Assembly (NCBI GenBank): GCA_035464095.1
Contig: DATHSO010000150.1
Coordinates: 56,593 to 120,592, forward strand
Reading direction: 5' to 3'
Length of the DNA stretch: 64,000 nt
From: Candidatus Methylomirabilota bacterium
GTDB taxonomy: Bacteria; Acidobacteriota; Thermoanaerobaculia; Thermoanaerobaculales; Sulfomarinibacteraceae
Shown: positions 1,920 through 20,251 of the stretch, in pieces
How the letters are laid out: each line of letters starts with the position of its first letter
Position numbering within the stretch: the stretch's first letter is position 1
Notes under the pieces: generated by a model
Told to the model about the DNA's origin: nothing
The model's input: only the letters and a program-made list of their open reading frames with translations
Database searches by the model: none
Program-made: the position numbers and the translations under genes

Positions 1920-2681
1920 GTGAGTGTGACCAGCCGAGTCGCCGACCTTTCGTCGCCGGAGCTGCTGGCCCTGGTCCGCGGCGGCAGCCTGGACGACCTC
2001 GAGGTGCTGGAGGTCCTGCGCAGCCCCTTCTGCACCGCCCAGATCGCCGAGCTGGTGGCGTCGGACCGGGAGCACCTCGGGACCCAGTCGGTGCGGGAGC
2101 TGCTGGCGGGGTTCCCCGGCTTGAGCAACGCGCGGGCCATGAACCTCCTGTCATCGCTGCCCTGGACCTCGCTGCTGGCGGTGGCCCAGGCGCCCCGGAC
2201 CCCGCCGCTGGTGCGGCGACAGGCCGAGCGCAAGCTCATTCTCCAGGTCCACTCCATGGCTCTGGGCGAGAAGGTCGCCATGGCGAGGCGGGCGCATCGG
2301 GCCCTGTTTACGGCCCTCGTGCGCGAGGGCGACCCGATGATCCTGAGCGCGCTGCTCGACAACCCGCGCCTGGTGGAGAATGACATCGTGGTGCTCGTCA
2401 ACACCCGGGAGCCGCCTCCCGAGCTGCTGGGAGAGATCGTTCGGCACCACCGCTGGGGTCAGTGCTTCGGGGTTCGGCGGGCCGTCGTCGAGTGCCCGAC
2501 CAGCCCGCTTCCCTTGGCGCTGAGCGTCCTGGTCCAGCTGCCGCCCGTCGAGCTCCAGCGCATTGCCGCCAAGGAGCGGCTGCCGGAGCGCCTGCGGGAC
2601 GCAGCCTCGGCGCTGCTTTGCCGTCGCGAACGGGGCGAGGGGCCGGGGGCGGGGATCGGGAACGGGATCGGGGTCGGTTGA
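1920..2681 (+). CDS. hypothetical helical-repeat protein; start uncertain, C-terminus runs into a repeat block
   Basis: ORF 1794..2681; the first GTG after the prsW-like stop is at 1920. C-terminal ~100 aa are paralogous to ORF 3764..4840. The last 11 codons (GAGIGNGIGVG) are encoded by the GGGATC/GGGAAC repeat. Confidence 0.55.
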   Translation: MSVTSRVADLSSPELLALVRGGSLDDLEVLEVLRSPFCTAQIAELVASDREHLGTQSVRELLAGFPGLSNARAMNLLSSLPWTSLLAVAQAPRTPPLVRRQAERKLILQVHSMALGEKVAMARRAHRALFTALVREGDPMILSALLDNPRLVENDIVVLVNTREPPPELLGEIVRHHRWGQCFGVRRAVVECPTSPLPLALSVLVQLPPVELQRIAAKERLPERLRDAASALLCRRERGEGPGAGIGNGIGVG

Positions 2682-2885
2682 CTCCCGCGGGGGCGCGAGC
2701 GACTGTTCGCTGCCACTGCCACTGCCACTGCCACTGCCACTGCCACTGCCACTGCCACTGTTCCTGATCACTGCCGCTGGTCGCTGTCCCTTGTCACCGG
2801 CGCTGGTCGCCGCCGATGGAACTCCCTCGGGCACGGGCACGGGCACGGGCACGGGGCCGGGAAGGAGGGGAGAAAAAGGGGAATC
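2650..2885. repeat. mosaic block of five different short-tandem-repeat modules (element E1)
   Basis: Modules in order: GGGATC/GGGAAC units 2650..2677; 19-mer junction 2692..2710; (CTGCCA)x8.5 2710..2760; GCTGGTCGCYG words 2761..2820; (GCACGG)x4 2831..2854; purine run GGGAAGGAGGGGAGAAAAAGGGGAA 2859..2883. Confidence 0.9.
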
Positions 2886-2918
2886 GACGGGCGCGCCGCG
2901 AACCCTGCGCAGCAGTGG

Positions 2919-2924
2919 TAAGAT
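2919..2924 (+). promoter_or_regulatory. -10-like hexamer 6 nt before the rodZ-like GTG
   Basis: TAAGAT at 2919..2924; GTG at 2931. Confidence 0.35.
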
Positions 2925-2930
2925 CCTGGG

Positions 2931-3764
2931 GTGGTGACGGTTGACGAACCGACCCGGACCGACCCCAGAGCCTTCGGCGAGCAGCTGCGGAGGGTGCGCG
3001 AGAGCGCCGGACTGGAGATCGAGGACATCAGCGCCGAGACCAAGGTCTCGCGGCGGGTCCTCGAGGCTCTCGAGGGGGGGAATTTCGGCACCCTGCCGGA
3101 GCGGGTGTTCTGCCGGAGCTTCGTCGCCCAGTACGCGGGCACCATCGGGATCGACCCCGATCCCCTGGTGGCCGCCTTCGACCGGGCCTGGCAGGACCAC
3201 ACCGAAAGCTCGGGGATCCATGCACGCCCGGTGCCGGAGGTGGCCGACCTGAGCCCGTCCATCCGCTGGCGCTTCTGGATCCCCATCGCCGCCGGCGCTC
3301 TCATCCTGTTGGTGGCCGGAGGCGTGATCCTGAGCGGCTCGTCGTCGGGCCCCCAGGGCCTCAAGCCGGACCCGAGGCGTTCGGGGTCGCGGCAGACAGT
3401 CTCTCAACCGACCCAGCCACCGACGATTCCGGTCCCTCCGGTGGGCACGGCCACGGCGACGGTGCCCGAGCCTGCCGAAGACGCTGTGGTCCGGATGACG
3501 GTCGAGGTGGACGAGGGCGAGGAGTGCTGGATCCACTACCGGGACAGTGAGGGCATGACCGGTCAGCAGCTCCTCACCGGGGGTGAGCGGGTCGCCCTGG
3601 ACCTCCCGGTCCCGGTGAAGCTGACGGTGGGCAATGCCGGCGCCGTCCGGGTGAGCGTGGACGGCCGGACCTTCGGCGATCTCGGTCTGCCCGGCCAGGT
3701 GATCCACACCGAGATCACCGACGACGGCATTCGTCCTCTGGAGTCGGGTGGGTTCGGGGGCTGA
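2931..3764 (+). CDS. rodZ: RodZ-like cytoskeleton-associated protein (N-terminal HTH, TM segment, C-terminal beta domain)
   Basis: N-terminus FGEQLRRVRESAGLEIEDISAETKVSRRVLEALE is XRE-type HTH. Single TM WRFWIPIAAGALILLVAGGVIL. C-terminus LTVGNAGAVRVSVDG is DUF4115-like. Confidence 0.65.
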   Translation: MVTVDEPTRTDPRAFGEQLRRVRESAGLEIEDISAETKVSRRVLEALEGGNFGTLPERVFCRSFVAQYAGTIGIDPDPLVAAFDRAWQDHTESSGIHARPVPEVADLSPSIRWRFWIPIAAGALILLVAGGVILSGSSSGPQGLKPDPRRSGSRQTVSQPTQPPTIPVPPVGTATATVPEPAEDAVVRMTVEVDEGEECWIHYRDSEGMTGQQLLTGGERVALDLPVPVKLTVGNAGAVRVSVDGRTFGDLGLPGQVIHTEITDDGIRPLESGGFGG

Positions 3765-4840
3765 TGAGCCGCTTCGAGACCACCGACGACCTTCTCAACG
3801 GGATCCTCGAGGGCAAGGTTCCGCGCCAGGTGCGGCTGTTCGCCGCCCAGGGCCTGCTGCCGATCTCGCGCGAGGACCTGTTGCGCCTCCAGGTGCTGCT
3901 CTCCACGGACCCCGACACCGAGCTCGCGAAGGTCGCCGAGGCGTCGGTGGCGGAGGTCGAGGAGGCGACCCTGGTCGACTGGGTCAAGAGCTACACGCAC
4001 CAGCCGGTGGAGCTCGACCTCCTGGTGAGGCTTCGGGACGAGGACTCGATCTGGGCGGCGGTGGCGACCAGCCCCGAGGTCTCCGACGAGACCCTGCGGG
4101 TGCTGGCCAAGAACGGCGGCAACGTCGTCCAGGACATCATCATCACCAACCAGGTGCGGATCTTCAACTGCCTCGAGATCCTCGAGGACCTGAGGGCCAA
4201 CCGGCACATCGCCGACACCATCCTGCGCCGGGTTCGAGAGTTCGAGGAGGAGTTCCTCGAGAAGGCACTGGCAGCGGAGGGGGCCCTCGGCGGGACCGAC
4301 GCACCGAACATCGAGGAGGCCCTGGCGGCGCTGCGCCTGATCGGGGCCCACATCCCGGCCCTCGACCGCCTTCCCTACCAGCGGCCGCACGAGGATGCGG
4401 GCCTGCAGGAAGCGGTGGGGCTGCTCGGCGGTGGCGACACGGCGTTCAGCCGGCTGCTCAAGATGAACATCAAGGAGAAGGTGATCTGCGCGCTGAAGAG
4501 CAGCCGTGAGGAGCGCGCGATCCTCATCAACTCCCGCAACCGGCTCGTGGTGCGGGCGGTGCTGGCGTGCCCGCGGCTGTCCGACGGCGAGGTCGAGGTC
4601 TTCGCCGGCTCGCGCACCGTCGACACCGAGGTGCTCCGGATCATCAACCGCAACCCGCGCTGGACCAGGCGCTACCAGGTCGCCCTCCAGCTGTGCCTCA
4701 ACCCGAAGACCCCGGTGGAGATCTCCATGCGCCTGGTTCCCAGGCTCAACACCCGCGACCTCAAGCGCCTCGCCATCAACCGGAACGTCAACCCGGTGGT
4801 GCGGCGGTCGGCCCAGAACATCGCCCAACGGCGCCGCTGA
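3764..4840 (+). CDS. hypothetical helical-repeat protein, paralogous tail to ORF 1920..2681
   Basis: 358-aa ORF start-coupled to the rodZ-like stop. No recognisable catalytic motif. Confidence 0.6.
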   Translation: MSRFETTDDLLNGILEGKVPRQVRLFAAQGLLPISREDLLRLQVLLSTDPDTELAKVAEASVAEVEEATLVDWVKSYTHQPVELDLLVRLRDEDSIWAAVATSPEVSDETLRVLAKNGGNVVQDIIITNQVRIFNCLEILEDLRANRHIADTILRRVREFEEEFLEKALAAEGALGGTDAPNIEEALAALRLIGAHIPALDRLPYQRPHEDAGLQEAVGLLGGGDTAFSRLLKMNIKEKVICALKSSREERAILINSRNRLVVRAVLACPRLSDGEVEVFAGSRTVDTEVLRIINRNPRWTRRYQVALQLCLNPKTPVEISMRLVPRLNTRDLKRLAINRNVNPVVRRSAQNIAQRRR

Positions 4841-4969
4841 CGGCTGTCGGGCGGCACACGAACCTCATTGCCAGAGAAGACCTTGCGGTCCGGGCGGCGT
4901 TGCTTTGCCGGTGTGGATATGGTAATCAATTGACTGCAGGCCAACCTGCGGAACCACCGCGAGAAATCG

Positions 4970-5638
4970 ATGGCGAAGTCATACAACCTCTACGAGATCC
5001 TCGGGGTCGAGCCGGATGCGAGCGAGGCGCAGATCCGCACCGCCTTCCGAAAGCTCAGCTTCCAGCACCACCCCGACCGTTTCAGGGGGCCGGAACGGGC
5101 CCGGGCCGAGGAGCGCTTCCAGGGCATCACCGAGGCCTTCAACGTCCTCAGCCGGCCCGAGAGCCGGGCCAAGTACGACAACAACCTGGCCCAGGGCCAG
5201 GCAGACAGCGCCGCCATGGAGCCGGCCGAGATCGCCCGCAGGCTGGCGTCAAGGGGCGCACAGACCCTCCGCGAGGGACGGGTCTCCGACGCGGTGGCGG
5301 AGCTCAAGTCCGCCCTCGACCACGACGAGGCGTGCTCACGAGCGCACTACTTCATGGGCCTCGCCCTGTCACGGATCAGCGATCGCGACAAGGAGGCGCT
5401 CCGCCACATGGAGCGCGCCGCCACCCTCGAGCCGCGCAACGCCGTGATGCTCGCCGAGGCCGCCGTGCTCGCGCTCAAGGTGGGCATGCGGGCCAAGGCG
5501 CAGCGCCTGGCCGACCAGGCCCTGACCTTCGACCCGACCAACGACAAGGCGGCCAAGGTCCTCCAGACATCGAACGAAGAGGACCCGTCCGCGAGCGGCG
5601 AAGGCGGTCTGCTCGGACGTCTGCGGCGGAGGGGCTGA
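4970..5638 (+). CDS. J-domain (DnaJ-like) protein with TPR repeats
   Basis: N-terminus YEILGVEPDASEAQIRTAFRKLSFQHHPDR is a J-domain with the HPD motif. TPR-like helices follow. Confidence 0.8.
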   Translation: MAKSYNLYEILGVEPDASEAQIRTAFRKLSFQHHPDRFRGPERARAEERFQGITEAFNVLSRPESRAKYDNNLAQGQADSAAMEPAEIARRLASRGAQTLREGRVSDAVAELKSALDHDEACSRAHYFMGLALSRISDRDKEALRHMERAATLEPRNAVMLAEAAVLALKVGMRAKAQRLADQALTFDPTNDKAAKVLQTSNEEDPSASGEGGLLGRLRRRG

Positions 5639-5644
5639 GGGATC

Positions 5645-6457
5645 GTGGCCATCAACCCCAACCGCGTCATCGGCTATCGGCTCGAGTCCGCAGGCGCGAC
5701 CGACGTCGGCCGCAAGCGCCAGCTCAACGAGGACGTCTTCCTGACCGACGAGTCGCTGGGCCTCTACCTGGTGGCCGACGGCATGGGCGGCCACGCCGCC
5801 GGCGAGGTCGCCTCCCGCCTGGCGGCCGACGAGATCTTCCGCACCCTCGGCGGGCGCGGCGGGAGCGTGGAGGAGACCTGGCCGGAGCACTGGGACCGCG
5901 ACCGCAGCGTCACCGCCAACCTGCTGGTGGACGCGATCCTGTCCGGACACGAGCGGGTCACCAACGCCGTCAACCGCGACGCCAACCTCAAGGGGATGGG
6001 CACAACCGTGGTGGTCGCGGTGCACCCGCCGGCGAGTCGGCACCTGGTGGTGTGCCACGTCGGCGACAGCCGGGCCTACCGCTGGCGCCGCAGCCAGCTC
6101 GAGATCCTGACCGAGGACCACTCCTGGGTCCACGAGCAGGTGGCTGCGGGCTTCCTGTCCGAGGAGGCCGCCCGCAACCACCCCCTCAAGAACGTGGTGA
6201 CCCAGGCCCTGGGAGGCAGCGCCGAGCCCAAGGTGGACATCCTCGAGACCGAGATGATGCACGGCGACCTCTACATGCTGTGCTCGGACGGGCTCAACTC
6301 GATGCTCACCGACGAGGAGATCGCCGACTTCCTCGCCCGGGCGGACAACCTCGACGAGTGCACCGGCCGGCTCATCGACGCCGCCAACGAGCGGGGCGGC
6401 AACGACAACGTCACCGTCGTCCTGCTCCGGGCCTGCCAGATCACCCCGAAAGCCTGA
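5645..6457 (+). CDS. PP2C-family Ser/Thr protein phosphatase
   Basis: Motifs DVGRKRQLNEDVF, LVADGMGGHAAGEVAS, GDSRAY and GGNDNVTVVL. Confidence 0.9.
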   Translation: MAINPNRVIGYRLESAGATDVGRKRQLNEDVFLTDESLGLYLVADGMGGHAAGEVASRLAADEIFRTLGGRGGSVEETWPEHWDRDRSVTANLLVDAILSGHERVTNAVNRDANLKGMGTTVVVAVHPPASRHLVVCHVGDSRAYRWRRSQLEILTEDHSWVHEQVAAGFLSEEAARNHPLKNVVTQALGGSAEPKVDILETEMMHGDLYMLCSDGLNSMLTDEEIADFLARADNLDECTGRLIDAANERGGNDNVTVVLLRACQITPKA

Positions 6458-6607
6458 AGCTCCAGGCCCGACCGCCCAGGCCACCGTCGTCCGAGCCCGG
6501 CGATCGAGCGTCCACCACCCGGCAGGGCAGGGGAATGGTCGGGCCGGGTCCGAGGTTGCCGCAGTCGAGCAGGCGCCGCCGGAGCGCCGCCAACGAGGTG
6601 CACGCCC

Positions 6608-8293
6608 ATGGCCGACTTCCATCTGCCGCCATCACCGCAGTTCTCCGGCGTGCCCGGGCCGCTGCTGCTCGTCATCCTCGACGGGGTCGGGCTGTATCGC
6701 GGAGCCGCCGAGGGCTACCCGGCCAACGCCTTCGACCTGGCCGCCACGCCGAAGCTCGACCGCCTTCTCGCCGCCGCGCCCGTGCGGCTCGAGCTCAAGG
6801 CCCACGGCACCGCGGTCGGGATGCCGTCGGACGCCGACATGGGCAACTCGGAGGTCGGGCACAACGCCATGGGGGCGGGCCGGATCTTCGCCCAGGGGGC
6901 GAAGCTGGTCAGCGACGCCATCGCGGCGGGCACCATCTTCGCCGGCCCGGTGTGGCGCGAGCTGGTCGAACGGGTGCGCGACGGCGGCGGCACCTTCCAC
7001 CTGATCGGGCTGGTCTCGGACGGCAACGTCCACAGCCACATCGACCACCTCGAGGCCCTGATCCGCCGCCTCGCCGGGGAGGGCGTGCCCAGGGTCCGCC
7101 TCCACGCCCTCGCCGACGGCCGGGACGTGGACCCGGTCACCTACCACCTCTACCTGGAGAGGCTGGAAGCCGTGTTCGACGAGCTTCGGGCGGGTGGCTG
7201 CGACGTGGCGGTGGCGTCGGGCGGCGGCCGGATGGCGATCACCATGGACCGTTACAACGCCAACTGGGAGATGGTCCGGGTGGGCTGGCAGACCCACGTT
7301 CTCGGGCGCGGCCGGAGCTTCCGGTCGGCGGCGGAAGCGGTGGCGACCCTGCGCGCCGAGCGCCCAGGGGTCATCGACCAGGACCTTCCCCCGTTCGTGA
7401 TCGAGGACGGCGGCGGCCGGCCGCTCGGGGAGATCGTGGACGGCGACTCGGTGGTGTTCTTCAACTTCCGCGGCGACCGCGCGATCGAGATCTCCCGGGC
7501 CTTCACCGAGGACGACTTCCGATTCTTCGACCGGGAGCGACGCCCGGAGGTGGCCTACGCCGGCATGATGCAGTACGACGGCGACCTCCAGATCCCGCCC
7601 CGGTACCTGGTGGAGCCGCCCGCCATCGCCCGGACCGTCTCGGAGTACCTGGTCCACAACGGCGTCGCCCAGCTGGCCACGGCCGAGACCCAGAAGTACG
7701 GGCACGTGACCTACTTCTGGAACGGCAACAACTCCGAGAAGTTCGACCCGGCGCTGGAGGACTGGGTCGAGGTGCCGAGCGACGTGATCCCTTTCGAGCA
7801 GGCGCCGGAGATGCAGGCCGACAAGGTGTGCGGGGTGGTGGTGGATGCCCTCGCGAGCGGCCGCTACCGATTCCTGCGGGTCAACTTCGCCAACGGCGAC
7901 ATGGTCGGCCACACCGGCGTCCTCGAGGCCGCGGTGACGGCCATGGAGGCGCTGGACCGGTGCGTGGGGCGGCTCGAGGAAGCGGTCGCCGAGGCCGGTG
8001 GCACCATGATCGTCACCGCGGACCACGGCAACCTCGAGATGATGTGGGAGGTGGACCGGGCCACCGGCCACGTCAAGCTCGACGGCGACGGCAAGCCGGT
8101 GGTCAAGACCAGCCACACCCTGTCGCCGGTGCCGTGGCTGCTGGTCGGCGAGCGCGCCGACGAGCTCGTTCCCAACCCCGAGGTGAAGGCACCGGGGCTC
8201 GGCAACCTGGCCGCCACCATCCTCCTGCTCCTCGGCTTCTCCGCCCCGGCCGACTACCTGCCGCCCCTGGTCGTCCCCAAGGCTGCCGGGTGA
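6608..8293 (+). CDS. gpmI: 2,3-bisphosphoglycerate-independent phosphoglycerate mutase
   Basis: Motifs MGNSEVGHNAMGAGR, SDGNVHSH, NGDMVGHTG and ADHGN. Confidence 0.9.
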   Translation: MADFHLPPSPQFSGVPGPLLLVILDGVGLYRGAAEGYPANAFDLAATPKLDRLLAAAPVRLELKAHGTAVGMPSDADMGNSEVGHNAMGAGRIFAQGAKLVSDAIAAGTIFAGPVWRELVERVRDGGGTFHLIGLVSDGNVHSHIDHLEALIRRLAGEGVPRVRLHALADGRDVDPVTYHLYLERLEAVFDELRAGGCDVAVASGGGRMAITMDRYNANWEMVRVGWQTHVLGRGRSFRSAAEAVATLRAERPGVIDQDLPPFVIEDGGGRPLGEIVDGDSVVFFNFRGDRAIEISRAFTEDDFRFFDRERRPEVAYAGMMQYDGDLQIPPRYLVEPPAIARTVSEYLVHNGVAQLATAETQKYGHVTYFWNGNNSEKFDPALEDWVEVPSDVIPFEQAPEMQADKVCGVVVDALASGRYRFLRVNFANGDMVGHTGVLEAAVTAMEALDRCVGRLEEAVAEAGGTMIVTADHGNLEMMWEVDRATGHVKLDGDGKPVVKTSHTLSPVPWLLVGERADELVPNPEVKAPGLGNLAATILLLLGFSAPADYLPPLVVPKAAG

Positions 8294-8300
8294 GCGTAAA

Positions 8301-8330
8301 TTGACCCGTTCTTCGGCGCTCTGGTAGAGT
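8301..8330 (+). promoter_or_regulatory. sigma-70-like promoter directly abutting the accA start (leaderless candidate)
   Basis: TTGACC - 18 nt - TAGAGT, then 6 nt to ATG 8337. No SD. Confidence 0.5.
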
Positions 8331-8336
8331 CCGTCG

Positions 8337-9290
8337 ATGGCTTCCCCGACCCTGCCCTTTCTGGAGCCCATCGAGTCCCTGCGCGCCGAGGTGCGGGAGC
8401 TCGAGGCCGCGTCGGCGGGCTCCAAGCCGAGCGCCGCCCTGGTCAAGAAGCGCCGCGCCCTGGCCGCCGCCATCGACACCGTGTTCTCGTCGCTGACCCC
8501 TTACCAACGCTGCCAGGTGGCCCGACATCCCGACCGTCCGTACACCCTCGACTACATCTCGGCCCTGTTCACCGACTTCACCGAGCTCCACGGCGACCGC
8601 CGCTACGCCGACGACCCGGCCATTGTGGCGGGCTTCGCGCTCTTCGACGGCGATCCCGTGGCGGTGGTCGGCCACCAGAAAGGCCGGGACACCGGGGGCA
8701 AGCTCCACCGGAACTTCGGCATGCCGCGGCCCGAGGGCTACCGCAAGGCCCTGCGCATCATGCAGCTCGCGGCCCGCTTCCGGCGACCCGTGATCTCCTT
8801 CGTCGACACCCCCGGCGCCTACCCGGGGATCGACGCCGAGGAGCGCGGCCAGGCCGAGGCGATCGCCAACAACCTCCTCGAGATGGCCCGGCTGCCGGTT
8901 CCCGTGATCGTGGTGGTCACCGGCGAAGGCGGCTCCGGCGGGGCCCTGGGCATCGGGGTCGGGGACCGCATCCTGATGCTCGAGCACGCCGTCTACTCGG
9001 TGATCTCGCCCGAGGGGTGCGCGGCGATTCTCTGGAAGGACCAGGCGCGGGCCGAGGACGCCGCGCGGGCGCTCCGGCTCACCGCCCGCGACCTCAAGGA
9101 GCTCGGCGTGATCGACGAGATCCTGCCCGAGCCCCAGGGCGGCGCCCACATGGACGCTCCGGCCATGGCCAAGACGGTGGTGACGGGGATCCGCCGCCAC
9201 CTGCGGCAGATCCGGAAGGTCCGGCCCGACGCCCTCGTCGCCCGCCGCTACAAGAAGTTCCGAAGTATGGGGTTCGTGACCGATCGCTGA
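8337..9290 (+). CDS. accA: acetyl-CoA carboxylase carboxyltransferase alpha subunit
   Basis: Motifs [36 protein letters not shown] and [13 protein letters not shown]. Confidence 0.92.
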
Positions 9291-9367
9291 GGGGAGGCCC
9301 GCCCCGTGAGTGATCTCGTCCCGCCGCCGTCGTCGGCGCCGCGGTATCCGTCGGCCCGAGGTTCGGC

Positions 9368-11320
9368 GTGAGCCGCGCCGGACGGCGCTGGATCCGGCGC
9401 CTGACCGGGGTGCTCATCGTCGCCTTCCTGGCGGTGGTGGCGTTCATCGGCTGGGACCGGACCCGAGGCAACGGCAGGGGGGGGGCGCTGTTGGGCCCCG
9501 ACGCGGCGGATCTCGACGTGGCGGAGGTGGCGGTGGGGCTGTACCGGGGCTTCCGCCACACCGAGACGTTGAAGGGCGAGCCCCTGTTCATCCTCGACTC
9601 TCTGAAGACCCTGAGCCTGGCCTCCGGTTGGCAGGAGATCGAGGGGGTGCGGCTCCAGCTTTACCGGGACGGCGAGGAGGGTCCGGTGCTCACCGCCGAG
9701 CGGGCCTCGTTCAACATCGAGAGCCGGGACGCCCGCCTGGAGGGCGGGATCCACGTGGAGTTTCCCAGCGGCGCCTTCCTCAACACCGAGGCTGGCCACT
9801 TCCGAGCCAAGACCCAGGTCTTCGACTCGGAGGCGCCGGTGCTGTACGTGGACGGCCCCACCTTCGGCCAGGCGAGGCGGGCGAGCTACGACCTGGCCGA
9901 GAACCGGATTCTGCTCGAGGGCAACGCCGCCTTCAGGGCCGATGACGGCACCCTGCTGACGGCCCCCGAGATGGTCTACCGGCGGGACGAGAACCGGGTC
10001 CTGATGGCGGGCGGAGTGACCCTGACCCGGGGGCCTTCCAAGGTCGTGGCGCCGCGGGCGGTGGTCGAGCTGGCGCCGGACGACGGCCCCCCCAGGGCCA
10101 TCCAGCTGCTCGACGGGGTCAGCGCGACCACGATCGAGGAGGGGGGCGGCGCGCTGGTGACGATGCAGGCCGAGCGGGTCGTCGCCGAGATCGACGCCGG
10201 AGGCAACTGGCAGGTGGACGCCCGGTCCAGCGGGCCGTGGGTGGAGATCCGCTTCCTGGGCGGTCCGGGCTACTACGAGCGGGTCATCCAGACCATGGTC
10301 CTGGGGGCCGTGGTGGGGGAGACCGGACTGCTGAGCCTGCAGGCGGAGCGCGGGATCTGCCTCTTCGAGGTGCCGGAGGAGGGCCCGGCGCGGCGAGGCG
10401 AGGCGCAGACCGCCCGAGCGTGGTTCCGCGACGGGCTCATGACCGACGTCGAGCTCGACGGCGAGGTCGAGCTGGTCGCCGGGCCGCACACGGTCCACGC
10501 GGCCCGCGCGCGCCTCGTCCAGGCCACCGGCCTGGTGATGGTTCAGGGCGACCCCACCGGCGCCACCCGGGTCCGAGTGAGCTCCGAGCGCGGACAGATG
10601 ACCTGCGACCAGGCCAACCTCTTCGATCGGGAGGGCCGGGTCGAGGCCCGCGGCCAGGTCAACGGGGAGCTCCACGAAGCACGCCTCTTCGGCTCGGCCG
10701 GGGCTCCGGCCGACGACGAGCCGGTGCGCTTCGCCGGCAACGTCGTCGAGCTCACCGACGGCGGCGCCACGACGGTCCTGCGCGACAATGCCCGCGTCTG
10801 GCAGGGCCAGCGGCTGCTGCTGGCGGACAGCGTCATCTACCGGCAGGACGCCGAGGCGGTGGCCGCCCGCGGCCACGTCCGTGCCACCTTCCCCGCCGAC
10901 CAGATGGACCCGGAGGCCGATGCCGGGCAGGACGTGGTGGTGGTCTCGCGGGCCCTCGACTACGAGGCCGCCCAGCGGCGGGCGGAGTTCCGGGGCTCGG
11001 TCCGCTACGCCGACCCCAAGCACTCCCTGTCCGCCAACCGGATGACGGTGACCTTCGACGACAACGACGAGATCTCGGACGTCGAGGCCGAGGGCGCGGT
11101 GGAGATCAACGACCTGGTCGGCGGCCGCCGGCTCACCGGCCAGCACGCCCACCGCGAGCTGGCGACCCAGGTGATCACCGTCACCGGCTCGCCGGCCCAG
11201 CTCATCGACGAGCGGGGCAACGTGGCCTCCGGCGACTCGTTGACCTGGAACCAGGCCGATGGTACGGTCTCCATCGGCGGCGGCAGCGAGCTCATCTACT
11301 ATCCGGAGGAGACACCCTGA
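9368..11320 (+). CDS. membrane-anchored LptC/LptA-like (OstA-type) LPS-transport protein, apparent fusion or expansion
   Basis: N-terminal TM anchor followed by repeated OstA-like beta-jellyroll signatures. Lies directly upstream of lptB-rpoN, the position of lptC-lptA in the canonical locus. Confidence 0.65.
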
Positions 11321-12051
11321 GCCCGAAAGCGCTGGACCTCGTCGCCCGTGAACTGAGGAAGTCGTACCGCGGTCGCTCCGTGGTCGACGGCATCACGCTC
11401 GCCATCGCCCCGGGCGAGATCGTCGGCCTGCTCGGACCGAACGGGGCCGGCAAGACCACCACCTTCTACATGATGGTCGGGCTCATCGAGCCGGACGGCG
11501 GCCGGGTGGTTCTCGGGGAGCGGGACATCACCTCGGAGCCGATGTTCCGGCGCGCGCGGATGGGGGTCGCCTACCTGGCCCAGGAGCCGAGCGCCTTTCG
11601 CCACCTGAGCGTGGAGGACAACATCTGGCTCCTCCTCGAGGCCCTCGGGGTCGACTCGGGCACCTCCCGTCACCGGATCGGCCGGCTGCTCCAGGATTTC
11701 GGCCTCGCGGCCCTCAAGGACCAGCGGGCCGAGACCCTGTCGGGCGGGGAGCGCCGACGCCTGGAGATCGCCCGCGCCCTCGCCACCGAGCCCACCTTCA
11801 TTCTCCTCGACGAGCCCTTCGCCGGCATCGACCCGATCGCGGTGCTCGACCTCCAACGCATCATCGCGCATCTCAAGTCGTTGGGAATAGGTGTTTTAAT
11901 GACAGACCACAACGTCCGCGAGACATTGAAGATCACCGACCGCGCCTATATAATCAAGGACGGCAAGATTTTTGCTACAGGGCACCCTGTCGAGCTGGCC
12001 GAGAACGAAGACGTTCGTAGGATCTACCTGGGTGAAGGATTTCGACTGTGA
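11317..12051 (+). CDS. lptB: LPS export ABC transporter ATP-binding protein (start codon uncertain)
   Basis: Walker [10 protein letters not shown], signature LSGGERRR, Walker B ILLDEP, and the typical C-terminus [10 protein letters not shown]. There is no ATG/GTG near the N-terminus; CTG at 11317 overlaps the upstream stop. Confidence 0.88.
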
Positions 12052-12131
12052 TCTCGATCGGCCGGCGCCACCCGGCGGCGCGAATGCCGACGGCGGGGCC
12101 GCCGGGTCGCGCGTGAGGTGTTGACGGTTTC

Positions 12132-13619
12132 ATGGCTCTCGAGCAAAAGCTCCGGTTGAAGCTCGCCCAGCGGCTGGTGATGACGCCGTCGCTGCAGCAG
12201 GCGATCAAGCTGCTCCAGCTGTCCAGGCTCGAGCTCGAGGAGACTCTCGCCCAGGAGATTCTCGAGAACCCCGTGCTCGACGTGGAGGAGGCCGAGGATC
12301 AGGTGGTGGCCGAGGCCGGCGAGGCGCCGGCGGAGGGCGAGGCCAGAGCCGAGAGCGCGGCGGCCGAGGAGGACGGGCTGCCTTCGGAGGAGGAGGCGTA
12401 CGGCGACATCGACGTCGAGGCCTTCTTCGCCGACTACCTGGCCGACAGCCGACCCGAGGGGCCCTCGATGTCGGCGCCGGCGGCGGGCGACGGCGTACCG
12501 CTCGAGAACGTGCTGACGTCGTCGGGCGGGCTGTCCGATCACTTGGTGTGGCAGCTCCACCTGCTCGACTGCAGCGCCCGCAGCGTGGATATCGGCGAGT
12601 ACATCATCGGCAACCTGGACGAGGGTGGCTTCCTGCACGTGTCCGACGAGGAGATCGCCGCCGACACGGACGCCGACCCGGACGAGGTCGCCGAGGCGCT
12701 CGCGACCGTGCGCTCCCTGGACCCGCCGGGAATCGCCGCCCGCAGCCTCCAGGAGTGCCTGGCGATGCAGATCGACCGGCTCATCCAGGCCGCCGACGAG
12801 GAGGCCGACATCGAGGCTCTGGATCGGGCACGCACCGTCATCACCGACCACTGGGACGACTTCCTCCACCAGCGGTGGGAGCGCCTGGCGGCGGCCTGCG
12901 GCTGCGAGATCGCCGAGCTCAAGGTCCTGGTGGAGATCATCCAGCGCCTCGAGCTCAAGCCGGGTCGGATCTTCCACCAGGACCGCAACCAGTACATCGA
13001 GCCGGATGTCCACATCCGCAAGGTCGACGACGAGTACACGATCCACCTCAACGACGACGGGCTGCCACGGCTGCGCCTCAATGCGGGCTACACGCGGATG
13101 CTCGAGGGTGCGTCGGTCGATCCCCAGGTGGCGAGCTACCTGCGGGAGAAGATGCGCAGCGCGGTCTGGCTGATGAAGAGCATCGACCAGCGCCAGCGCA
13201 CGATCTACAAGGTGGCCAGGAGTATCGTGAACTTCCAGCGCGACTTTCTCGACCACGGCCTCGAGCACCTCAAGCCGATGGTGCTGCGCCAAGTGGCCGA
13301 GGACATCGGGATGCACGAGTCCACCATCTCGCGGGTGGTGAGCAACAAGTACATGTACACGCCCCGTGGGCTGTTCCCGATGAAGTACTTCTTCCACTCC
13401 GGGGTCGACTCGGCGCGGGGCGAGAACGTGTCGTCCCTGGTGGTCAAGGAGAGGATCCGCAAGCTGGTGGAGGCCGAGGACCCGTCGCGACCGCTGTCGG
13501 ACTCCAAGATCATGCGCATGTTGCAGCGCGAGGGCATCCGCCTCGCTCGGCGAACCGTGGCGAAGTACCGAGAGGAGATGTCGATCCCGTCATCCGACAA
13601 GAGGAAGAAGGTGTTCTGA
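12132..13619 (+). CDS. rpoN: RNA polymerase sigma-54 factor
   Basis: N-terminus LKLAQRLVMTPSLQQAIKLLQLSRLEL and C-terminal RpoN box ARRTVAKYREEM. Confidence 0.95.
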   Translation: MALEQKLRLKLAQRLVMTPSLQQAIKLLQLSRLELEETLAQEILENPVLDVEEAEDQVVAEAGEAPAEGEARAESAAAEEDGLPSEEEAYGDIDVEAFFADYLADSRPEGPSMSAPAAGDGVPLENVLTSSGGLSDHLVWQLHLLDCSARSVDIGEYIIGNLDEGGFLHVSDEEIAADTDADPDEVAEALATVRSLDPPGIAARSLQECLAMQIDRLIQAADEEADIEALDRARTVITDHWDDFLHQRWERLAAACGCEIAELKVLVEIIQRLELKPGRIFHQDRNQYIEPDVHIRKVDDEYTIHLNDDGLPRLRLNAGYTRMLEGASVDPQVASYLREKMRSAVWLMKSIDQRQRTIYKVARSIVNFQRDFLDHGLEHLKPMVLRQVAEDIGMHESTISRVVSNKYMYTPRGLFPMKYFFHSGVDSARGENVSSLVVKERIRKLVEAEDPSRPLSDSKIMRMLQREGIRLARRTVAKYREEMSIPSSDKRKKVF

Positions 13620-13638
13620 CACCTTGTTTGGAGTTAGC

Positions 13639-14184
13639 ATGAAGGTCGATTACATCGCGCGCAAGGTCACCCTGGACGATTCCTTCCGCCAGCTCACCGA
13701 GAAGAAGCTGGCCAAGATCACCAAGTACTTCAACGACATCCTCGACATGCGGGTGGAGGTCAGCCAGGAGCGGCACCTGCACGTGGTCGACCTGTTCGTC
13801 AAGGGCAAGGACTTCGACATCCACTCCACCACCCAACACAAGGAGCTCAACGCGGCGATCCAGGAGGGGATCGACAAGCTCGAGATCCAGGCTCGGCGGG
13901 CCAAGGCGCGGCTCAAGGACCACAAGGCCCGAGGCGGCGAAGCCCGGGCGGCGCAGAGCCTCGGGGACCAGGCGGCCGAGCCCGAGGCGACGGTGTCGGG
14001 CCCCCCGCAGATCGTCGAGCGCTCGACCATCGCCATCAAGCCCATGTCGGTGGAGGACGCGGTACTCGAGCTCGAGCGCGGGAGCGACCAGTTCCTGGTC
14101 TTCCGCAACGCCACCTCCGACCAGATCAACGTGCTCTACCGGCGCAGCGACAACAACCTGGGTCTGATCACCCCCGAGATCTGA
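13639..14184 (+). CDS. hpf: ribosome hibernation promoting factor, long form
   Basis: Lies after rpoN. N-terminal S30AE-like region plus C-terminal dimerisation region (IVERSTIAIKPMSVEDAVLELE, FLVFRN). Confidence 0.85.
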   Translation: MKVDYIARKVTLDDSFRQLTEKKLAKITKYFNDILDMRVEVSQERHLHVVDLFVKGKDFDIHSTTQHKELNAAIQEGIDKLEIQARRAKARLKDHKARGGEARAAQSLGDQAAEPEATVSGPPQIVERSTIAIKPMSVEDAVLELERGSDQFLVFRNATSDQINVLYRRSDNNLGLITPEI

Positions 14185-14651
14185 TGAAGATCCGAGAGGC
14201 GGTCAACCGCGATCTCGTCTTCCTGGGCCTGCGCGCGGCGGACGCCGCCCAGGCGATCGCGGAGATGTCCCGGCAGCTCGCCGACCATGCCGGTCTCGAC
14301 GCGACGAAGGTCGCGGCGTCCCTCGGCGAGCGCGAGCGGCTGGGCTCGACCTCGGTGGGCAACGGCTTCGCCATCCCGCACTGCAAGCTCGGCGACCTCG
14401 AGGACATCGTGGTGGCGCTGGCCCGATTCGAGGCGGGCGTCGACTTCGGCGGCAACCGGCACCACGAGCCGGTGTCCTTCTTCTTCGTGGTCCTGTCCCC
14501 GCCCGACCGTCCCGCCGAGCACCTCCAGGTGCTGTCCCAGATCGCGAGGATCCTCAAGAGCCGGGAGCTCAGGGACGAGCTCCTCGACGCCGCCGACAGC
14601 GACACGGTGGTGGAGGCCGTCGAGCGCGCGGCCGACCGGGAAGGGCTGTGA
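14184..14651 (+). CDS. ptsN: PTS EIIA-Ntr
   Basis: Motif STSVGNGFAIPHCK with the active-site His; conserved position after hpf. Confidence 0.85.
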   Translation: MKIREAVNRDLVFLGLRAADAAQAIAEMSRQLADHAGLDATKVAASLGERERLGSTSVGNGFAIPHCKLGDLEDIVVALARFEAGVDFGGNRHHEPVSFFFVVLSPPDRPAEHLQVLSQIARILKSRELRDELLDAADSDTVVEAVERAADREGL

Positions 14652-15634
14652 AGCTGCCGCCCCCGATCCCGGTGTCGCGCCTGGTCCGCGAGCCCCGACT
14701 CGCCCCGCTGCGCCTCCGGGTGGTGGCGGGGGAGGGCGGTCTCGACAGCCGCGAGATCTCCAACCCGCGGATCCAGAAGCCCGGTCTCGCCCTCGCCGGC
14801 TACCTGCCCTACGTCAAGGGCGGCCGCGCCCAGATCCTCGGCGAGTCGGAGTACGCCTACCTCGAGACCCTGGGCGAGGCGGTCGCCACCGAGCGCCTGC
14901 TCAGGATCGTCGACCTCGAGGTGCCGTGCCTGATCTCGACCAAGGGCAACCGGCCCCCCGACCAGGTGATCGATGCCTGCGACGAGCGCCGGGTGCCGCT
15001 GCTGCTGACCTCCCTGCAGACCTCCGAGACCATCGAGATCATCTCGGCCTTTCTCGAGGACGAGCTGGCGCCCCGGGTGCAGCTGCACGGGGTCCTGCTC
15101 GACGTCTTCTCCCTCGGCACCCTGATCGTGGGCGACGCCGGAATCGGCAAGAGCGAGTGCGCCCTCGAGCTGATCTACCGCGGCCACCGGCTGGTGGCCG
15201 ACGACATCGTCATGGTCCGCCGGACCCACAACCGCGGCCTCACCGGCAGCCCCCACGAGCTGCTGCAGAACTACCTCGAGCTCCGGGGCGTGGGCATCAT
15301 CGACATCCGCAAGCACTTCGGGATGACGGCGACCCAACCGTCGGTGGCGATCTCGCTGGTGATCCAGCTCATCAAGCTGAGCGCCGACGCCAAGGCCATG
15401 GAGCAGCGCTGGCGCGAGCAGATGATGGAGCGGCCGCGGGCGTGGACCTCCACCGAGACGATCCTCGGCATGGAGATCCCCAAGTACACCATGGTGGTGG
15501 CGCCCGGGCGCGACGTGGCGATCATGGTCGAGACCGCGGTCCGCAAGTGCCTGCTCGCCCAGCGGGGGATCCAGGACGAGCGCGACTTCCTCGAGGCGGT
15601 CAACCGGATCGCCCAGGGGGAGCCGGATGACTGA
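14648..15634 (+). CDS. hprK: HPr kinase/phosphorylase
   Basis: Motifs HGVLLDVFSLGTLIVGDAGIGKSECALELI and LELRGVGIIDI. Confidence 0.9.
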   Translation: MKLPPPIPVSRLVREPRLAPLRLRVVAGEGGLDSREISNPRIQKPGLALAGYLPYVKGGRAQILGESEYAYLETLGEAVATERLLRIVDLEVPCLISTKGNRPPDQVIDACDERRVPLLLTSLQTSETIEIISAFLEDELAPRVQLHGVLLDVFSLGTLIVGDAGIGKSECALELIYRGHRLVADDIVMVRRTHNRGLTGSPHELLQNYLELRGVGIIDIRKHFGMTATQPSVAISLVIQLIKLSADAKAMEQRWREQMMERPRAWTSTETILGMEIPKYTMVVAPGRDVAIMVETAVRKCLLAQRGIQDERDFLEAVNRIAQGEPDD

Positions 15635-16502
15635 GTCGCGCTTCGGGGGACCGTTCGTCATCACCGGTCTCTCGGGCTCGGGCAAGACGGTCCTCTCGCG
15701 CTCGCTGGAGGACATCGGCTACCTGTGCGTCGACAACATTCCCCTGGAGCTCGTCAGCGCCCTGTTCGAGGCCACCCAGCGGGAGATCGAGCGCCTGGTG
15801 GTCGGGATCGACGTCCGGGCCAAGGGCTTGGCCCACGATTTCCCGAGCATCTTCCGGGGGCTCAAGGAGCGCTACCCGAACCTGCGGCTGGTCTTCGTCG
15901 AGGCGTCCACCGAGGTGCTGCTCCGCCGCTACTCGGTGGTCCGCAGGCCCCACCCCCTGAGGGACGGGGGGATCGCCGACTCGATCGCCGCCGAGCGCAG
16001 CTCGTTGGGGGCGATCCGAAGCCTGGCGGACCTCATCGTCGACACCACCAACCTGTCGCCCCACGACCTGCGCCGGCAGGTTCTGGCCCTCGGCGGGGGC
16101 GACCCGGACCCCCAGGGGGCGCTCACCCTGGAGGTGGAGAGCTTCTCCTACCTTCAGGGGGTGCCGTCCACCGCGAGCCTGGTCTTCGACGTCCGGTTCC
16201 TGCCCAACCCGTACTTCAAGCAGGAGCTGCGCCAGCTCGCCGGTGACGACGAGCCGGTGAAGAGCTGGCTGGGCGGCCAGGAGGAGGTGGAGGAGGCGAT
16301 CCGGAAGGTCGTCGAGCTGGTGCTCTACCTCCTGCCGCGGTACGGCAACGAGCTCAAGAGCCAGCTCACCATCGCCGTCGGCTGCACCGGCGGGCGCCAC
16401 CGCTCGGTGTACGTGGCCGACCGCCTCGCCGAGGCCCTGGCCGAGGCCGGCCAGAAGGTCGTGCTGCGGCACCGCGACAAGGAGCAGTGGAGGTTCACAT
16501 GA
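15627..16502 (+). CDS. rapZ: RNase adapter protein RapZ (P-loop ATPase)
   Basis: Motifs ITGLSGSGKT, FDVRFLPNPY and AVGCTGGRHRSV. Confidence 0.9.
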   Translation: MTESRFGGPFVITGLSGSGKTVLSRSLEDIGYLCVDNIPLELVSALFEATQREIERLVVGIDVRAKGLAHDFPSIFRGLKERYPNLRLVFVEASTEVLLRRYSVVRRPHPLRDGGIADSIAAERSSLGAIRSLADLIVDTTNLSPHDLRRQVLALGGGDPDPQGALTLEVESFSYLQGVPSTASLVFDVRFLPNPYFKQELRQLAGDDEPVKSWLGGQEEVEEAIRKVVELVLYLLPRYGNELKSQLTIAVGCTGGRHRSVYVADRLAEALAEAGQKVVLRHRDKEQWRFT

Positions 16503-16915
16503 TCCCGGTTCTGGTTCTCACCCACGGCGAGCTCGCCAACGCCCTGCTCGAGTCGGCGCGCAAGATCGACCCGCATCTGGACGACGAGACCGACGCGATC
16601 ACCCTGCCGTGGGACGTGGACACCGACACCGCGACCGCCGAGCTCCGGGAGCGGCTCAAGGCCATGGACAACGGGTCCGGTGTGCTCGTGCTCACCGACA
16701 TGTTCGGCGGCACCGCCACCAACCTGGCGCTGCCGTTTCTGGTTCCCGACCGGATCGAGATCGTGACCGGGGCCAACCTCCCCATGCTCGTCAAGCTCGG
16801 ATCGCTCCGCGGCCGGGACATCCCCCTCGGCGACCTGGCGGCGCGGCTGGCCGAGTCCGGTCAGAAGAGCATCCGACTGGCCAGCGAGTTCCTGCGCAAC
16901 CGCAGCGGAGGCTGA
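16499..16915 (+). CDS. PTS EIIA component, mannose/fructose family
   Basis: N-terminus MIPVLVLTHGELA with the phosphorylatable His. The ATGA overlaps the rapZ stop. Confidence 0.8.
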   Translation: MIPVLVLTHGELANALLESARKIDPHLDDETDAITLPWDVDTDTATAELRERLKAMDNGSGVLVLTDMFGGTATNLALPFLVPDRIEIVTGANLPMLVKLGSLRGRDIPLGDLAARLAESGQKSIRLASEFLRNRSGG

Positions 16916-17026
16916 ACGAGGGCCGGGACCGCGTCCAGGTACAATGGAGGCCGGCGGGACCGGCGGCTGCCGACCGCACGTCGCCGGGGGCCGGGTTTCC
17001 CCACCGACATCAGGAGCGCGAAGGGC

Positions 17027-17296
17027 ATGACGCAGCAGAAGGTGATGATCACGAACCGGCTCGGGCTCCACGCCCGGGCGGCCGCCAAGCTCGTGCACAC
17101 GGCCAACACCTTCGAGTCGGACGTCTTCATCGGCGGCGACCACGAGGAGGTGAACGCCAAGTCCATCCTCGGCCTGCTGACCCTGGCGGCGTCCAAGGGG
17201 ACCCCGCTGACGGTCCGTGCCGAGGGCCCGGACGAGGCCGAGGCGGTGCGCGCCCTGGTCGAGCTGTTCGAGGACAAGTTCGGGGAGGGCGAGTGA
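17027..17296 (+). CDS. ptsH: phosphocarrier protein HPr
   Basis: Motif ITNRLGLHARAAAKLV contains the His15 region; the Ser46 region is NAKSILGLL. Confidence 0.92.
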   Translation: MTQQKVMITNRLGLHARAAAKLVHTANTFESDVFIGGDHEEVNAKSILGLLTLAASKGTPLTVRAEGPDEAEAVRALVELFEDKFGEGE

Positions 17297-19056: not shown

Positions 19057-19065
19057 GGAGGCCGC

Positions 19066-19440
19066 GTGATGGTCCCGGCGCCGGTGCGCATCGTCGACAA
19101 GCCGTGGGGGCACGAGGAGATTTTCGCCGAGACCCCCAGCTACGTCGGCAAGATCCTCTTCATCCGCAGCGGCGAGGCGCTGAGCCTGCAGTACCACGAG
19201 ATCAAGGAGGAGACCCTCAGGGTCCTCGACGGCAGCCTCGACCTGGTGCTCGGCCCCGACCTCGAGTCCCTCAGGACCCACCACCTGACCGTCGGAGCGG
19301 TCTTCCACGTCGCCCCCGGCACCCTGCACCGGATGGCCGCGACCTCCGACTGCACCCTGCTCGAAGTGTCCACCAACCACCTCGACGACGTGGTCCGTCT
19401 CGAGGACCGTTACGGTCGCCAGGGGACCAGCGACCCCTGA
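19066..19440 (+). CDS. cupin-domain protein (type II mannose-6-phosphate isomerase C-terminal-like)
   Basis: Motifs KPWGHEEIF and LSLQYHEIKEETLRVLDG. Confidence 0.7.
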   Translation: MMVPAPVRIVDKPWGHEEIFAETPSYVGKILFIRSGEALSLQYHEIKEETLRVLDGSLDLVLGPDLESLRTHHLTVGAVFHVAPGTLHRMAATSDCTLLEVSTNHLDDVVRLEDRYGRQGTSDP

Positions 19441-19459
19441 GCCGCTCCGGAGGTGAGCC

Positions 19460-20140
19460 GTGACTAGGTCAATGACGACAGCAGCCCTCGCGGTGGCCCT
19501 GGCCTGGACCCTCTCGGCCGCCGCCGGCGAGGAGCCCACCGCGACCCCGACCCCCAGCCCGACTCCGCTCGTCGGCGAGCGCACCCTGTCCGAGGTCGCC
19601 GGTTCCATCACGCTCGACCCCAAGGCGGTCGGCGCCCAAGGCGGGATCGTGATCAGCGACGAGAACCTGTCGGAGCTCGCCGGCAAGGGCGCCATCACCG
19701 AGGTGACCCGCCGGGGCCCGGCCCAGGGCCAGAGGAACCTGGCCGACGTCACCGGCACCGGTGCGGAGGTCGAAGGGCAGGGACCGGGCTTCGCCGAGGG
19801 TCAGGAGCGCAAGCAGTACTGGCAGGGTCTGTATCGGCAGCAGGTCGATCTGGTGACGTCGCTGCGTGGGCAGATCGACCAGCTCGACCGGGAGATTCCG
19901 GGTCTGTGGCGCGACTACTACGCCTGGGACGACCCCGCCTACCGTGACGGCGTCATCAAGCCCAAGCTCGACGAGGCCATGGCCCGGCGCCAGAAGCTCG
20001 AGGCCGACCTCCAACAGGCCGAGGCCCGGCTCGATCAGATCGAGCAGGATGCCCGTCGCGACGGGGCCCAGCCGGGCTGGTTCAGAGGCATCGAGAAGCC
20101 GCCGACGCCGGTGCCGACCCGCGGCGTGATGCCCCCCTGA
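19460..20140 (+). CDS. hypothetical secreted coiled-coil protein
   Basis: Signal-peptide-like N-terminus MTTAALAVALAWTLSAAAG, a Pro/Thr linker and a coiled-coil C-terminus. Confidence 0.55.
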   Translation: MTRSMTTAALAVALAWTLSAAAGEEPTATPTPSPTPLVGERTLSEVAGSITLDPKAVGAQGGIVISDENLSELAGKGAITEVTRRGPAQGQRNLADVTGTGAEVEGQGPGFAEGQERKQYWQGLYRQQVDLVTSLRGQIDQLDREIPGLWRDYYAWDDPAYRDGVIKPKLDEAMARRQKLEADLQQAEARLDQIEQDARRDGAQPGWFRGIEKPPTPVPTRGVMPP

Positions 20141-20251
20141 GCGCGGCCGGGACGCCGCCGGCGGCTCCCCCTGGAAAAGACCTGAGAACGGAATCGCCGG
20201 CCGGCGACGTCGACGCGCCTGTCAGTCGCATGACCTCGCCGTGAGGTGACT

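Follow-up and report, generated by a model that had tools for sequence, protein, structure and literature searches.

Near the left end of the stretch of DNA analyzed here (64,000 nt of contig DATHSO010000150.1 from the metagenome-assembled genome GCA_035464095.1, referred to as the window), a 235-bp patchwork of short tandem repeats without an open reading frame (ORF) lies in the intergenic space between a conserved hypothetical gene and rodZ. This element, called the block, was followed over 2650-2891. The upstream gene (1920-2681, plus strand) encodes a protein of 253 aa, and its last 11 codons and stop codon lie within the first repeat module, as an earlier reading made from the sequence alone had proposed; the protein tail encoded there is GAGIGNGIGVG-stop and the ORF ends at 2681. 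The upstream ORF is a real gene, as its third-codon-position GC stays at 0.83-1.0 as far as ~2650; in addition, the gene call in the public contig L033 corresponds to window 1920-2681. Homology with the orthologues stops near ...ALLCRRE, beyond which the aligned tails are variable. Downstream, the rodZ-like gene (2931-3764, plus strand; Pfam matches to the HTH_25 and RodZ_C domains, exact protein also present on L031 and L032) is preceded by a promoter-proximal spacer, CAGTGGTAAGATCCTGGGG (2892-2930, plus strand), which is outside the insert and is kept in L028, L030, L001, and all alleles of the block.

The repeats were divided into modules M1 to M6 along 2632-2891, all given on the plus strand except M2. 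M1 (2632-2677) is a G-rich lead-in followed by a (GGGATC/GGGAAC/GGGGTC) x4.3 array at 2652-2677, with a G-quadruplex motif on the sense strand; the period of 6 preserves the reading frame of the upstream gene tail. M2 (2678-2709, minus strand) is a non-repetitive junction of 32 nt, composed of the reverse complement of GGCAGYGAACRRTCGCYCGCGCC plus ~15 nt, and M3 (2710-2760) is a (CTGCCA) x8.5 array with 100% identity between units. M4 (2761-2826) is a segment of GCTGGTCGCYG words, supported by its match to 45475-45600 and by word count, while M5 (2827-2856) contains a (GGGCAC) x4.7 array at 2828-2855 (CGGGCA in the scan, equivalent to GGGCAC) and a further G-quadruplex motif. M6 (2857-2891) is a polypurine G-rich run which extends to the right breakpoint of the strain-variable segment, the alignment with L031 beginning at 2892. 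The tandem repeat scan placed the arrays of M1, M3, and M5 where the sequence-only reading had put them. The block holds three of the 16 G-quadruplex motifs of the window, all on the sense strand, and its arrays stop at least 55 nt upstream of a conserved TAAGAT element. Arrays of period 5-9 number 15 in the 64 kb (0.23 per kb).

Several of these modules have paralogues elsewhere in the genome, and the significance of each match was assessed by comparing its local alignment score with those of 500 dinucleotide shuffles. Read in reverse complement, 2692-2759 aligns with 21026-21093 (68 nt at 91%, E 1e-22, junction included), M3 being the reverse complement of the (AGTGGC)x8.7 array at 21026-21077. 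A second counterpart is collinear over a longer distance: on the opposite strand, 20253-20335 corresponds to 2652-2731 (83 nt at 78%, E 5e-7), and the alignment of M1-M3 with that segment scores 42.5, a value reached by none of the 500 shuffles (9.0±1.5). This bears out the proposal that the left half of the block mirrors 20252-20342 in reversed module order. The paralogous M3-M2-M1 copy (20254-20343, plus strand), identified by repeat scan, alignment, and shuffles, has the opposite orientation and is made of (AGTGGC)-like units, the junction, and (CGATCC)x5.5. The junction M2 by itself scores 15 and 17 (shuffles ~7.4±1.5, 0/500 reaching either score), and the junction-plus-array pattern GGCAGYGAACRRTCGCYCGCGCC occurs three times in the window (2692-2714 on the minus strand, 20270-20292, and 21071-21093) where 0.01 copies are expected. 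An exact-pattern scan of JGI metagenome contigs with TGGCAGYGAACAGTCGCYCGCGCC gave no match, and the junction was absent from all of the 116 other loci examined; since it is missing both from the JGI scan and from the loci of other genomes, M2 is regarded as species-specific.

The words of M4 match 45475-45600 with a score of 25 (shuffles 8.9±1.7, 0/500), so their claimed likeness to those at 45481-45592 stands, and the word GCTGGTYGCTGWC has six matches against 0.7 expected, confined to the block and the 45481-45592 locus. M4 also matches, with 96% over 28 nt, the proximal arm in a cassette of a four-helix-bundle gene (see below) in L090, with similar matches in L075 and L099. Two of the five module correspondences that had been read from the sequence did not survive the shuffles. 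The (GCACGG)n array plus G-run scored 11 against 45625-45675, which 146 of the 500 shuffles reached (9.8±1.8), and the scores of the purine run against the GA arms at 32925-32980 and 48700-48745 were reached by 427/500 and 47/500 shuffles, respectively; the three that remain, which involve the GGGATC array, junction, and (CTGCCA)n and the GCTGGTCGCYG words, are far above chance. M5 does have a counterpart in the same genome ~1.6 kb to the left of the window start (L033:251-280, 93% over 30 nt), which reads GCTGGTTGCTGAC-ATC-(GGGCAC/GGGTAC)4, and others upstream of a four-helix-bundle gene in L077, from another genome, and in L109. The surrounding intergenic block in L033 (126-325), which precedes a MiaB-like gene and lies ~1.5-1.7 kb to the left of where the window begins, holds GCTGGTTGCTGAC-ATC-(GGGCAC/GGGTAC)4-GGGG immediately before a TGGTAAAAT element, and both the M4-M5 pairing and the position relative to the promoter are as in the block.

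The modules had been described as arms, a term that is misleading at this locus since the block has no self-complementarity and the nearest complementary partners are 17.5 kb away. RNA folding of the two strands gave z +1.24 and +1.52, and the two halves gave -0.91 and +1.70, indicating no excess structure, whereas genuine fold-backs in the same window reach z -5.4 (32.9 kb), -8.1 (48.6 kb), and -4.9 (40.2 kb). The block modules are thus the type of sequence that forms arms elsewhere, present here without a partner. As had been noted, the locus has no loop ORF. An Rfam search of the window returned no match, ribosomal RNA (rRNA) included; scans for tRNA and tmRNA and for promoter and terminator consensus sequences found none in or near the block; and a profile of the leader of the four-helix-bundle cassettes matched only at 20431-20615 and nowhere in the block. 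A protein-level search with the four-helix-bundle protein of the window revealed no remnant in the block, and the trailer-region profile matched nothing but arrays, and those weakly. The block has no terminal inverted repeats, and when it was aligned with L028 and L030, in which the site is empty, no target-site duplication was seen. Matches in the PDB to designer PPR proteins were repeat artefacts, with 0 significant stretches.

The orthologous intergenic region, whose examination in relatives the sequence-only reading had proposed, was compared in 26 of them. The gene order PrsW, hypothetical gene, rodZ, and a 358-aa gene is kept in Thermoanaerobaculales and in other Acidobacteriota, the nearest named genome being Ca. 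Sulfomarinibacteraceae. The spacer between the hypothetical gene and rodZ measures 0-159 nt in these relatives, mostly 26-55 nt, and in the relative with ~82% protein identity it is 64 nt long and free of arrays, with conserved sequence restarting at CAGTGGTAAGATCCT (window 2913). Because the spacers of the relatives are short and that of the ~82% relative lacks arrays, the block is a lineage-specific gain of ~190-250 nt. The syntenic loci of the relatives contain only five arrays in ~290 kb (0.017 per kb). The 159-nt orthologous spacer of a distant relative (L016:5027-5185) carries repeated words of GGTCCA type, which may be an independent gain of repeats at the same position. The protein of the upstream gene (P0245) is HSL18664.1, identical to a protein of an NCBI metagenome-assembled genome labelled Methylomirabilota; this label is probably a binning or taxonomy error, synteny and similarity pointing to Thermoanaerobaculales and Ca. 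Sulfomarinibacteraceae. Exact protein look-ups found no entry for the 358-aa gene or the four-helix-bundle protein, nor for the long form of a MiaB-like ORF, in this last case because its real start is at ~21298.

Within the species at least four alleles of the block exist, which differ in unit numbers, unit sequence, and modules; variation in unit number, which had been proposed for measurement, is therefore present. Allele A, that of the window, is shared by L033, L032, and L034 and is constant in length. L033, which comes from a different public sample, contains the entire block, with five single nucleotide polymorphisms (SNPs) inside it, while L032 and L034, from a third sample, cover the right end with one SNP and the left end with none inside the block. 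The SNPs between L033 and the window are unevenly distributed, two falling in the first 2800 nt and 11 of the 13 in 2816-3068, and this clustering around the block points to recombination there. Allele C (L122, GCA_035466355.1, 95% DNA identity) keeps the architecture and the junction but has an M1 two units shorter, (GGGCAC)3 at M5, and an unchanged purine run; in place of (CTGCCA)8.5 it has a short degenerate (CTGCCG)-type array, and it carries GCTGATCGCTG words. Allele D (L123) departs from the others after the junction, with degenerate CTGYCA/GCTGCCG words for M3. Junction M2 is conserved in alleles A, C, and D. The shorter M1, by two units, is found in L122, L123, P0246, and P0247, and the protein tails of the 90% protein cluster (GAGIGNGIGVG, ...GAG, GAGTGIG, and GAGIGIG) confirm the variation in M1 units.

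Allele B (L031) stands out: over the 10.9 kb that start at 2892, its contig and the window are 99.87% identical, and left of this point it is composed of degenerate CTGYCA/GCTGCCG-type units, an M4-like word, an (AGGGAG)n module, and a degenerate M5. The (AGGGAG)n module (55-60 nt, L031:94-152) is collinear with 32926-32978 at 87-89% (E 3e-11), non-array flanks included; in the window that segment is the right arm of a short fold-back (plus strand, z -5.4). The arrays at 20254-20444 are unchanged at the other end of this same contig, which means that arrays are not uniformly unstable and speaks against a general array instability. Recombination among family members, suggested by the sequence-only reading, fits the allele data best, given the allele B module and the SNP clustering, although it is still an inference. 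An inversion between the block and its inverted copy at 20.25 kb was considered and is unsupported, since contig k141_931181 keeps the window orientation over ~2704-20650; the other end of that contig lies within the four-helix-bundle gene and not at a repeat. Public metagenome contigs frequently break at or within arrays or cassettes (L031, L032, L034, L117, and many of L035-L114).

The arrays which match the left half of the block lie next to and within a complete fold-back cassette (20373-21093, plus strand), identified by its inverted repeats and with arms that pair in the predicted fold (z -3.4). From left to right, all on the plus strand, it is composed of a (CTGCCA)-like left arm (20373-20444) forming an inverted repeat with the right arm, a leader (20445-20586), a PF05635/TIGR02436 gene (20587-20955; Pfam E 1.9e-13, TIGR02436 at 55 bits), a hairpin (20979-21003), and the (AGTGGC)x8.7 right arm (21026-21077) with its junction copy (21071-21093). 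PF05635/TIGR02436 is the family of the proteins of 23S rRNA intervening sequences (IVS), S23p, and is homologous to Avd of diversity-generating retroelements (PMC10053308); the protein encoded here also matches PDB 2gsc weakly. The cassette with its arrays (~1.05 kb, 20223-21275) is an insertion, L118:5652-5746 having a 95-nt spacer at the site, and lies upstream of the MiaB-like gene, the real start of which is at window ~21298 and not 21139. Neither flanking gene matches a reverse-transcriptase family (19460-20140 has no Pfam match, and 21139-22626 is MiaB-like), a result obtained with no dedicated scan for a reverse transcriptase or for template and variable repeats. The first eight codons of the gene can pair with CATGGTCACCTCCGGGTCGTTC, the 5' end of the leader, ~130 nt upstream (20465-20488 pairs with 20587-20610); the paired codons include GGAGG and a second ATG, and a TTGACA palindrome lies between the two halves. 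At least 20 of the 24 positions are paired in 58 of 70 cassette loci (from L035-L114), with compensatory changes, and the structure looks like a conserved anti-Shine-Dalgarno helix controlling translation.

A second copy in the window is decaying: a truncated four-helix-bundle pseudogene (45130-45405) is followed by a 25-nt hairpin motif (45424-45448) and the array of M4-type words (45481-45592), all on the plus strand. The pseudogene corresponds to residues 38-122 and shares 50% identity with the intact copy. It starts inside an inverted repeat of 39 nt with 90% complementarity (45087-45188), and the 25-nt motif, TTGTGGGGCCGGCGGCTCGCCGGCC, is the one found at 20979. The family was surveyed in 80 metagenome loci (L035-L114) encoding relatives with 60-73% protein identity. 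Among those with enough flank, 39 of 56 have arrays within 450 nt upstream of the four-helix-bundle gene and 35 of 67 have them within 350 nt downstream; the upstream units are typically CAGCGA, CAGCGG, or CAGTGG and the downstream ones are their complements. Close to the gene there are 0.89 arrays per kb, compared with 0.21 per kb over the rest of these contigs. Sixty of the cassette flanks fell into 55 unrelated contexts.

Other array-built structures occur in the window. At 40199-40315, in a genome of ~70% GC, an AT-rich heptamer fold-back pairs (AATTATG)n with (ATTCATA)n (z -4.9); AATTNNN and AACGTTN arrays recur on many of the metagenome contigs bearing these four-helix-bundle genes, which suggests conserved unit classes rather than local slippage. 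Two long fold-backs (41917-42536 and 51798-52386) have arms of CGCGAAG, CGCAAAGG, CATCGCAG, and CTCTGCGC units that are 44-60 nt long, 77-93% complementary, and related between the two loci. Beyond the arms, their loops (~370-500 nt) show no mutual homology, and four ORFs taken from them gave no NCBIfam match. A (CCGCCG)x16 array (62142-62237, 74% match) lies in a 737-nt stretch that is without a gene on a rough map.

Taken together, we consider it reasonably probable that the block is a non-coding and non-autonomous mosaic of a dispersed array family, remodelled by slippage, homogenization, and recombination, and likely to be selfish or neutral. Complete members of this family are fold-back cassettes, in which a conserved leader and a PF05635 gene for an S23p/Avd-like four-helix-bundle protein stand between arrays of complementary units. 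The mosaic would have been acquired once, in the ancestor of the species-level group, where only a short spacer separates the stop codon of the hypothetical gene from the rodZ promoter. Slipped-strand mispairing would then alter unit numbers, within-array homogenization would yield such arrays as the pure (CTGCCA)8.5, and whole modules would be swapped or added when the block recombines non-allelically, or undergoes gene conversion, with further arrays of the family. The data demonstrate the anatomy of the block, the paralogy of its modules, its insertion relative to the relatives, the diversity of its alleles, and the association of such arrays with these four-helix-bundle genes; from them we infer the recombination mechanism, the derivation from cassette arms, and the neutrality. 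The block is probably functionless in itself, and most likely it is a passenger, selfish or neutral, that nevertheless has side effects: the upstream gene takes its last 11 codons and its stop codon from it, and three G-quadruplex motifs and a polypurine tract come to lie on the sense strand just upstream of the rodZ promoter.

Several points weigh against this account. No transposase, integrase, or reverse transcriptase was identified among the window proteins, not all of which were scanned, and the search for a target-site duplication or defined element ends was negative. For allele B the only source is a contig end of 188 nt. Significant inverted arms within 520 nt were detected in only ~10 of 32 metagenome cassettes, and as only about one third of loci show them, the fold-back is a frequent but not universal feature of the family. 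It is also conceivable that M1 expanded where it now stands, out of a G-rich tail native to the gene, since the upstream-gene tail of a relative contains GGGGAACGCTCGGGAAC. Finally, neutrality is an assumption, and the conserved junction M2 together with the sense-strand G-quadruplex motifs could mean that there is some function.

An alternative derivation, which we regard as unlikely, is that the block is the scar of a complete four-helix-bundle fold-back cassette from which leader, gene, and trailer were deleted, leaving a piece of the left arm joined to a piece of the right arm. In favour of this, M4 closely resembles the leader-adjacent arm segment of other cassettes (the 96% match in L090, and those in L075 and L099), the pseudogene at 45130-45405 shows that another cassette in the window is decaying, and cassettes do insert at such positions, just upstream of a promoter. 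Against this, the leader profile finds nothing in the block, and the two halves are not complementary as the two arms of one element would be. Arrays without a four-helix-bundle gene are moreover common in such genomes (0.21 per kb), so that a cassette gene need never have existed in the block.

Slightly less probable again is a regulatory role, in which the block would be a simple-sequence contingency locus, or a G-quadruplex or triplex element, which through array length tunes transcription of rodZ or affects termination or mRNA stability of the upstream gene. The location directly upstream of the conserved rodZ promoter-proximal sequence, the G-quadruplex motifs (3/16, all sense strand), the unit numbers that vary between strains, and the retention of the block across a divergence of ~95% DNA identity would all agree with this. 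The block is absent, however, from all relatives outside the species-level group and is thus not needed for control of rodZ; its arrays lie upstream of the conserved promoter-proximal sequence and not within it, the hexamer period keeps the M1 reading frame, and the promoter and terminator scan was negative. As the module types also recur at many unrelated loci, which better fits a repeat family, a regulatory role is disfavoured.

That each array arose by independent local slippage, the likenesses being low-complexity coincidence, is very improbable and strongly disfavoured. In its favour, shuffled sequences do equally well for two of the five claimed matches, and pure arrays such as (CTGCCA)8.5 are a signature of recent slippage. 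Slippage does not account, however, for a non-repetitive junction common to three loci (3 against 0.01 expected, 0/500 shuffles), for a collinear module order over 83 nt, for a match of allele B to 32926-32978 that extends into non-array flanks, or for unit classes that recur around four-helix-bundle genes in other genomes. An assembly artefact, that is a mis-joining of repeats in a metagenome-assembled genome, might be suspected where public assemblies so often end at arrays (L031, L032, L034, and L117), but it is refuted by the independent contigs that carry the block, those of two other samples (L033, L032, and L034, with 0-5 SNPs and the same length) and L122 with its matching architecture at 95% DNA identity, and we give it almost no credence.

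The closest known system is the 23S rRNA IVS with its S23p/PF05635 ORF, found in Coxiella burnetii, Leptospira, and Xanthomonas. The Coxiella IVS has been described as a selfish element with a 28-bp terminal stem and has GACAGAT heptamer repeats upstream of the ORF in strain-variable number (PMC4990558). Like it, the complete cassettes described here carry a PF05635/TIGR02436 gene in the loop of a long terminal-inverted-repeat stem; unlike it, they are located between protein-coding genes and not in rRNA, as the absence of an Rfam match indicates, and their arms are concatenated tandem arrays of 6-9-nt units. The 20373-21093 cassette accordingly has the stem and the ORF but not the rRNA location, whereas the block is outside rRNA and without stem or ORF, and so resembles an IVS on none of the points compared.

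Bacterial interspersed mosaic elements (BIMEs) built on repetitive extragenic palindromic (REP) sequences in enterobacteria, and BOX elements in pneumococci, are strain-variable mosaics in non-coding intergenic DNA, assembled from a few kinds of short module. The block is comparable in that its modules occur at many loci and in variable order, orientation, and copy number between strains, but its units are hexamer arrays plus a short unique junction and not ~35-nt imperfect palindromes or boxA-B-C. It further differs from BIMEs and REPs in being unstructured, and no RAYT-type transposase has been linked to it within the 64 kb of genome considered, with the window proteins not all scanned. The short tandemly repeated repetitive (STRR) sequences of cyanobacteria are short-period heptamer arrays found only in intergenic regions, at many loci, and of unknown function. 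The arrays studied here share the intergenic location, short period, and repetition at many loci; they belong to another phylum, are made of other units, are demonstrably linked to PF05635 cassettes, occur as complementary pairs, and are concatenated, several at a time. Simple sequence repeat contingency loci likewise have short tandem repeats beside a promoter or in the 3' end of a gene, with strain-variable unit numbers, and in the block M5 has 3 or 4.7 units according to the strain and the length of M3 differs. Here, however, the hexamers preserve the frame, the promoter core is free of arrays, there is no apparent on/off effect, and the largest differences are replacements of modules and not gains or losses of units. 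With miniature inverted-repeat transposable elements and other fold-back elements the block shares its short, non-autonomous, multi-copy, and intergenic nature, and the loci at 32.9, 40.2, and 48.6 kb are true fold-backs, but the block itself has neither terminal inverted repeats nor a recognizable target-site duplication. When set against the array-flanked PF05635 cassette family defined in this work, the block shares modules and the junction with members in the same genome and lacks both the leader (anti-Shine-Dalgarno helix and TTGACA palindrome) and the four-helix-bundle ORF; it is an ORF-less derivative or relative of this family and not a complete member.

PF05635 genes have been noted between cas genes (PMC3936711), and the origin and mobility of IVS/S23p elements have been described as unclear (PMC4990558). 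A literature search found no description of array-built arms around PF05635 genes, and the repeat and cassette family appears to be undescribed. More generally, we propose tentatively, and with somewhat less than even confidence, that the PF05635 genes outside rRNA operons represent an undescribed class of dispersed IVS-like selfish cassettes with array-built arms (CAGNGN, GGGNNN, AATTNNN, and AACGTTN units of 6-9 nt), which would seed ORF-less arm mosaics that are recombination hot spots, exchange modules between loci, and differ even between strains that are >99.8% identical. Such mosaics are strain-level hypervariable markers, and they repeatedly cause contigs to break when Thermoanaerobaculia are assembled from metagenomes. 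The value of the block is thus that of a window on the family, and not of a device. Together with the 80 metagenome loci, the stretch studied here reveals a PF05635 family outside rRNA with array-built arms, dispersal over unrelated contexts, empty sites in relatives, and decaying or ORF-less derivatives, and it offers a system in which to ask how PF05635 elements spread and what their protein does.

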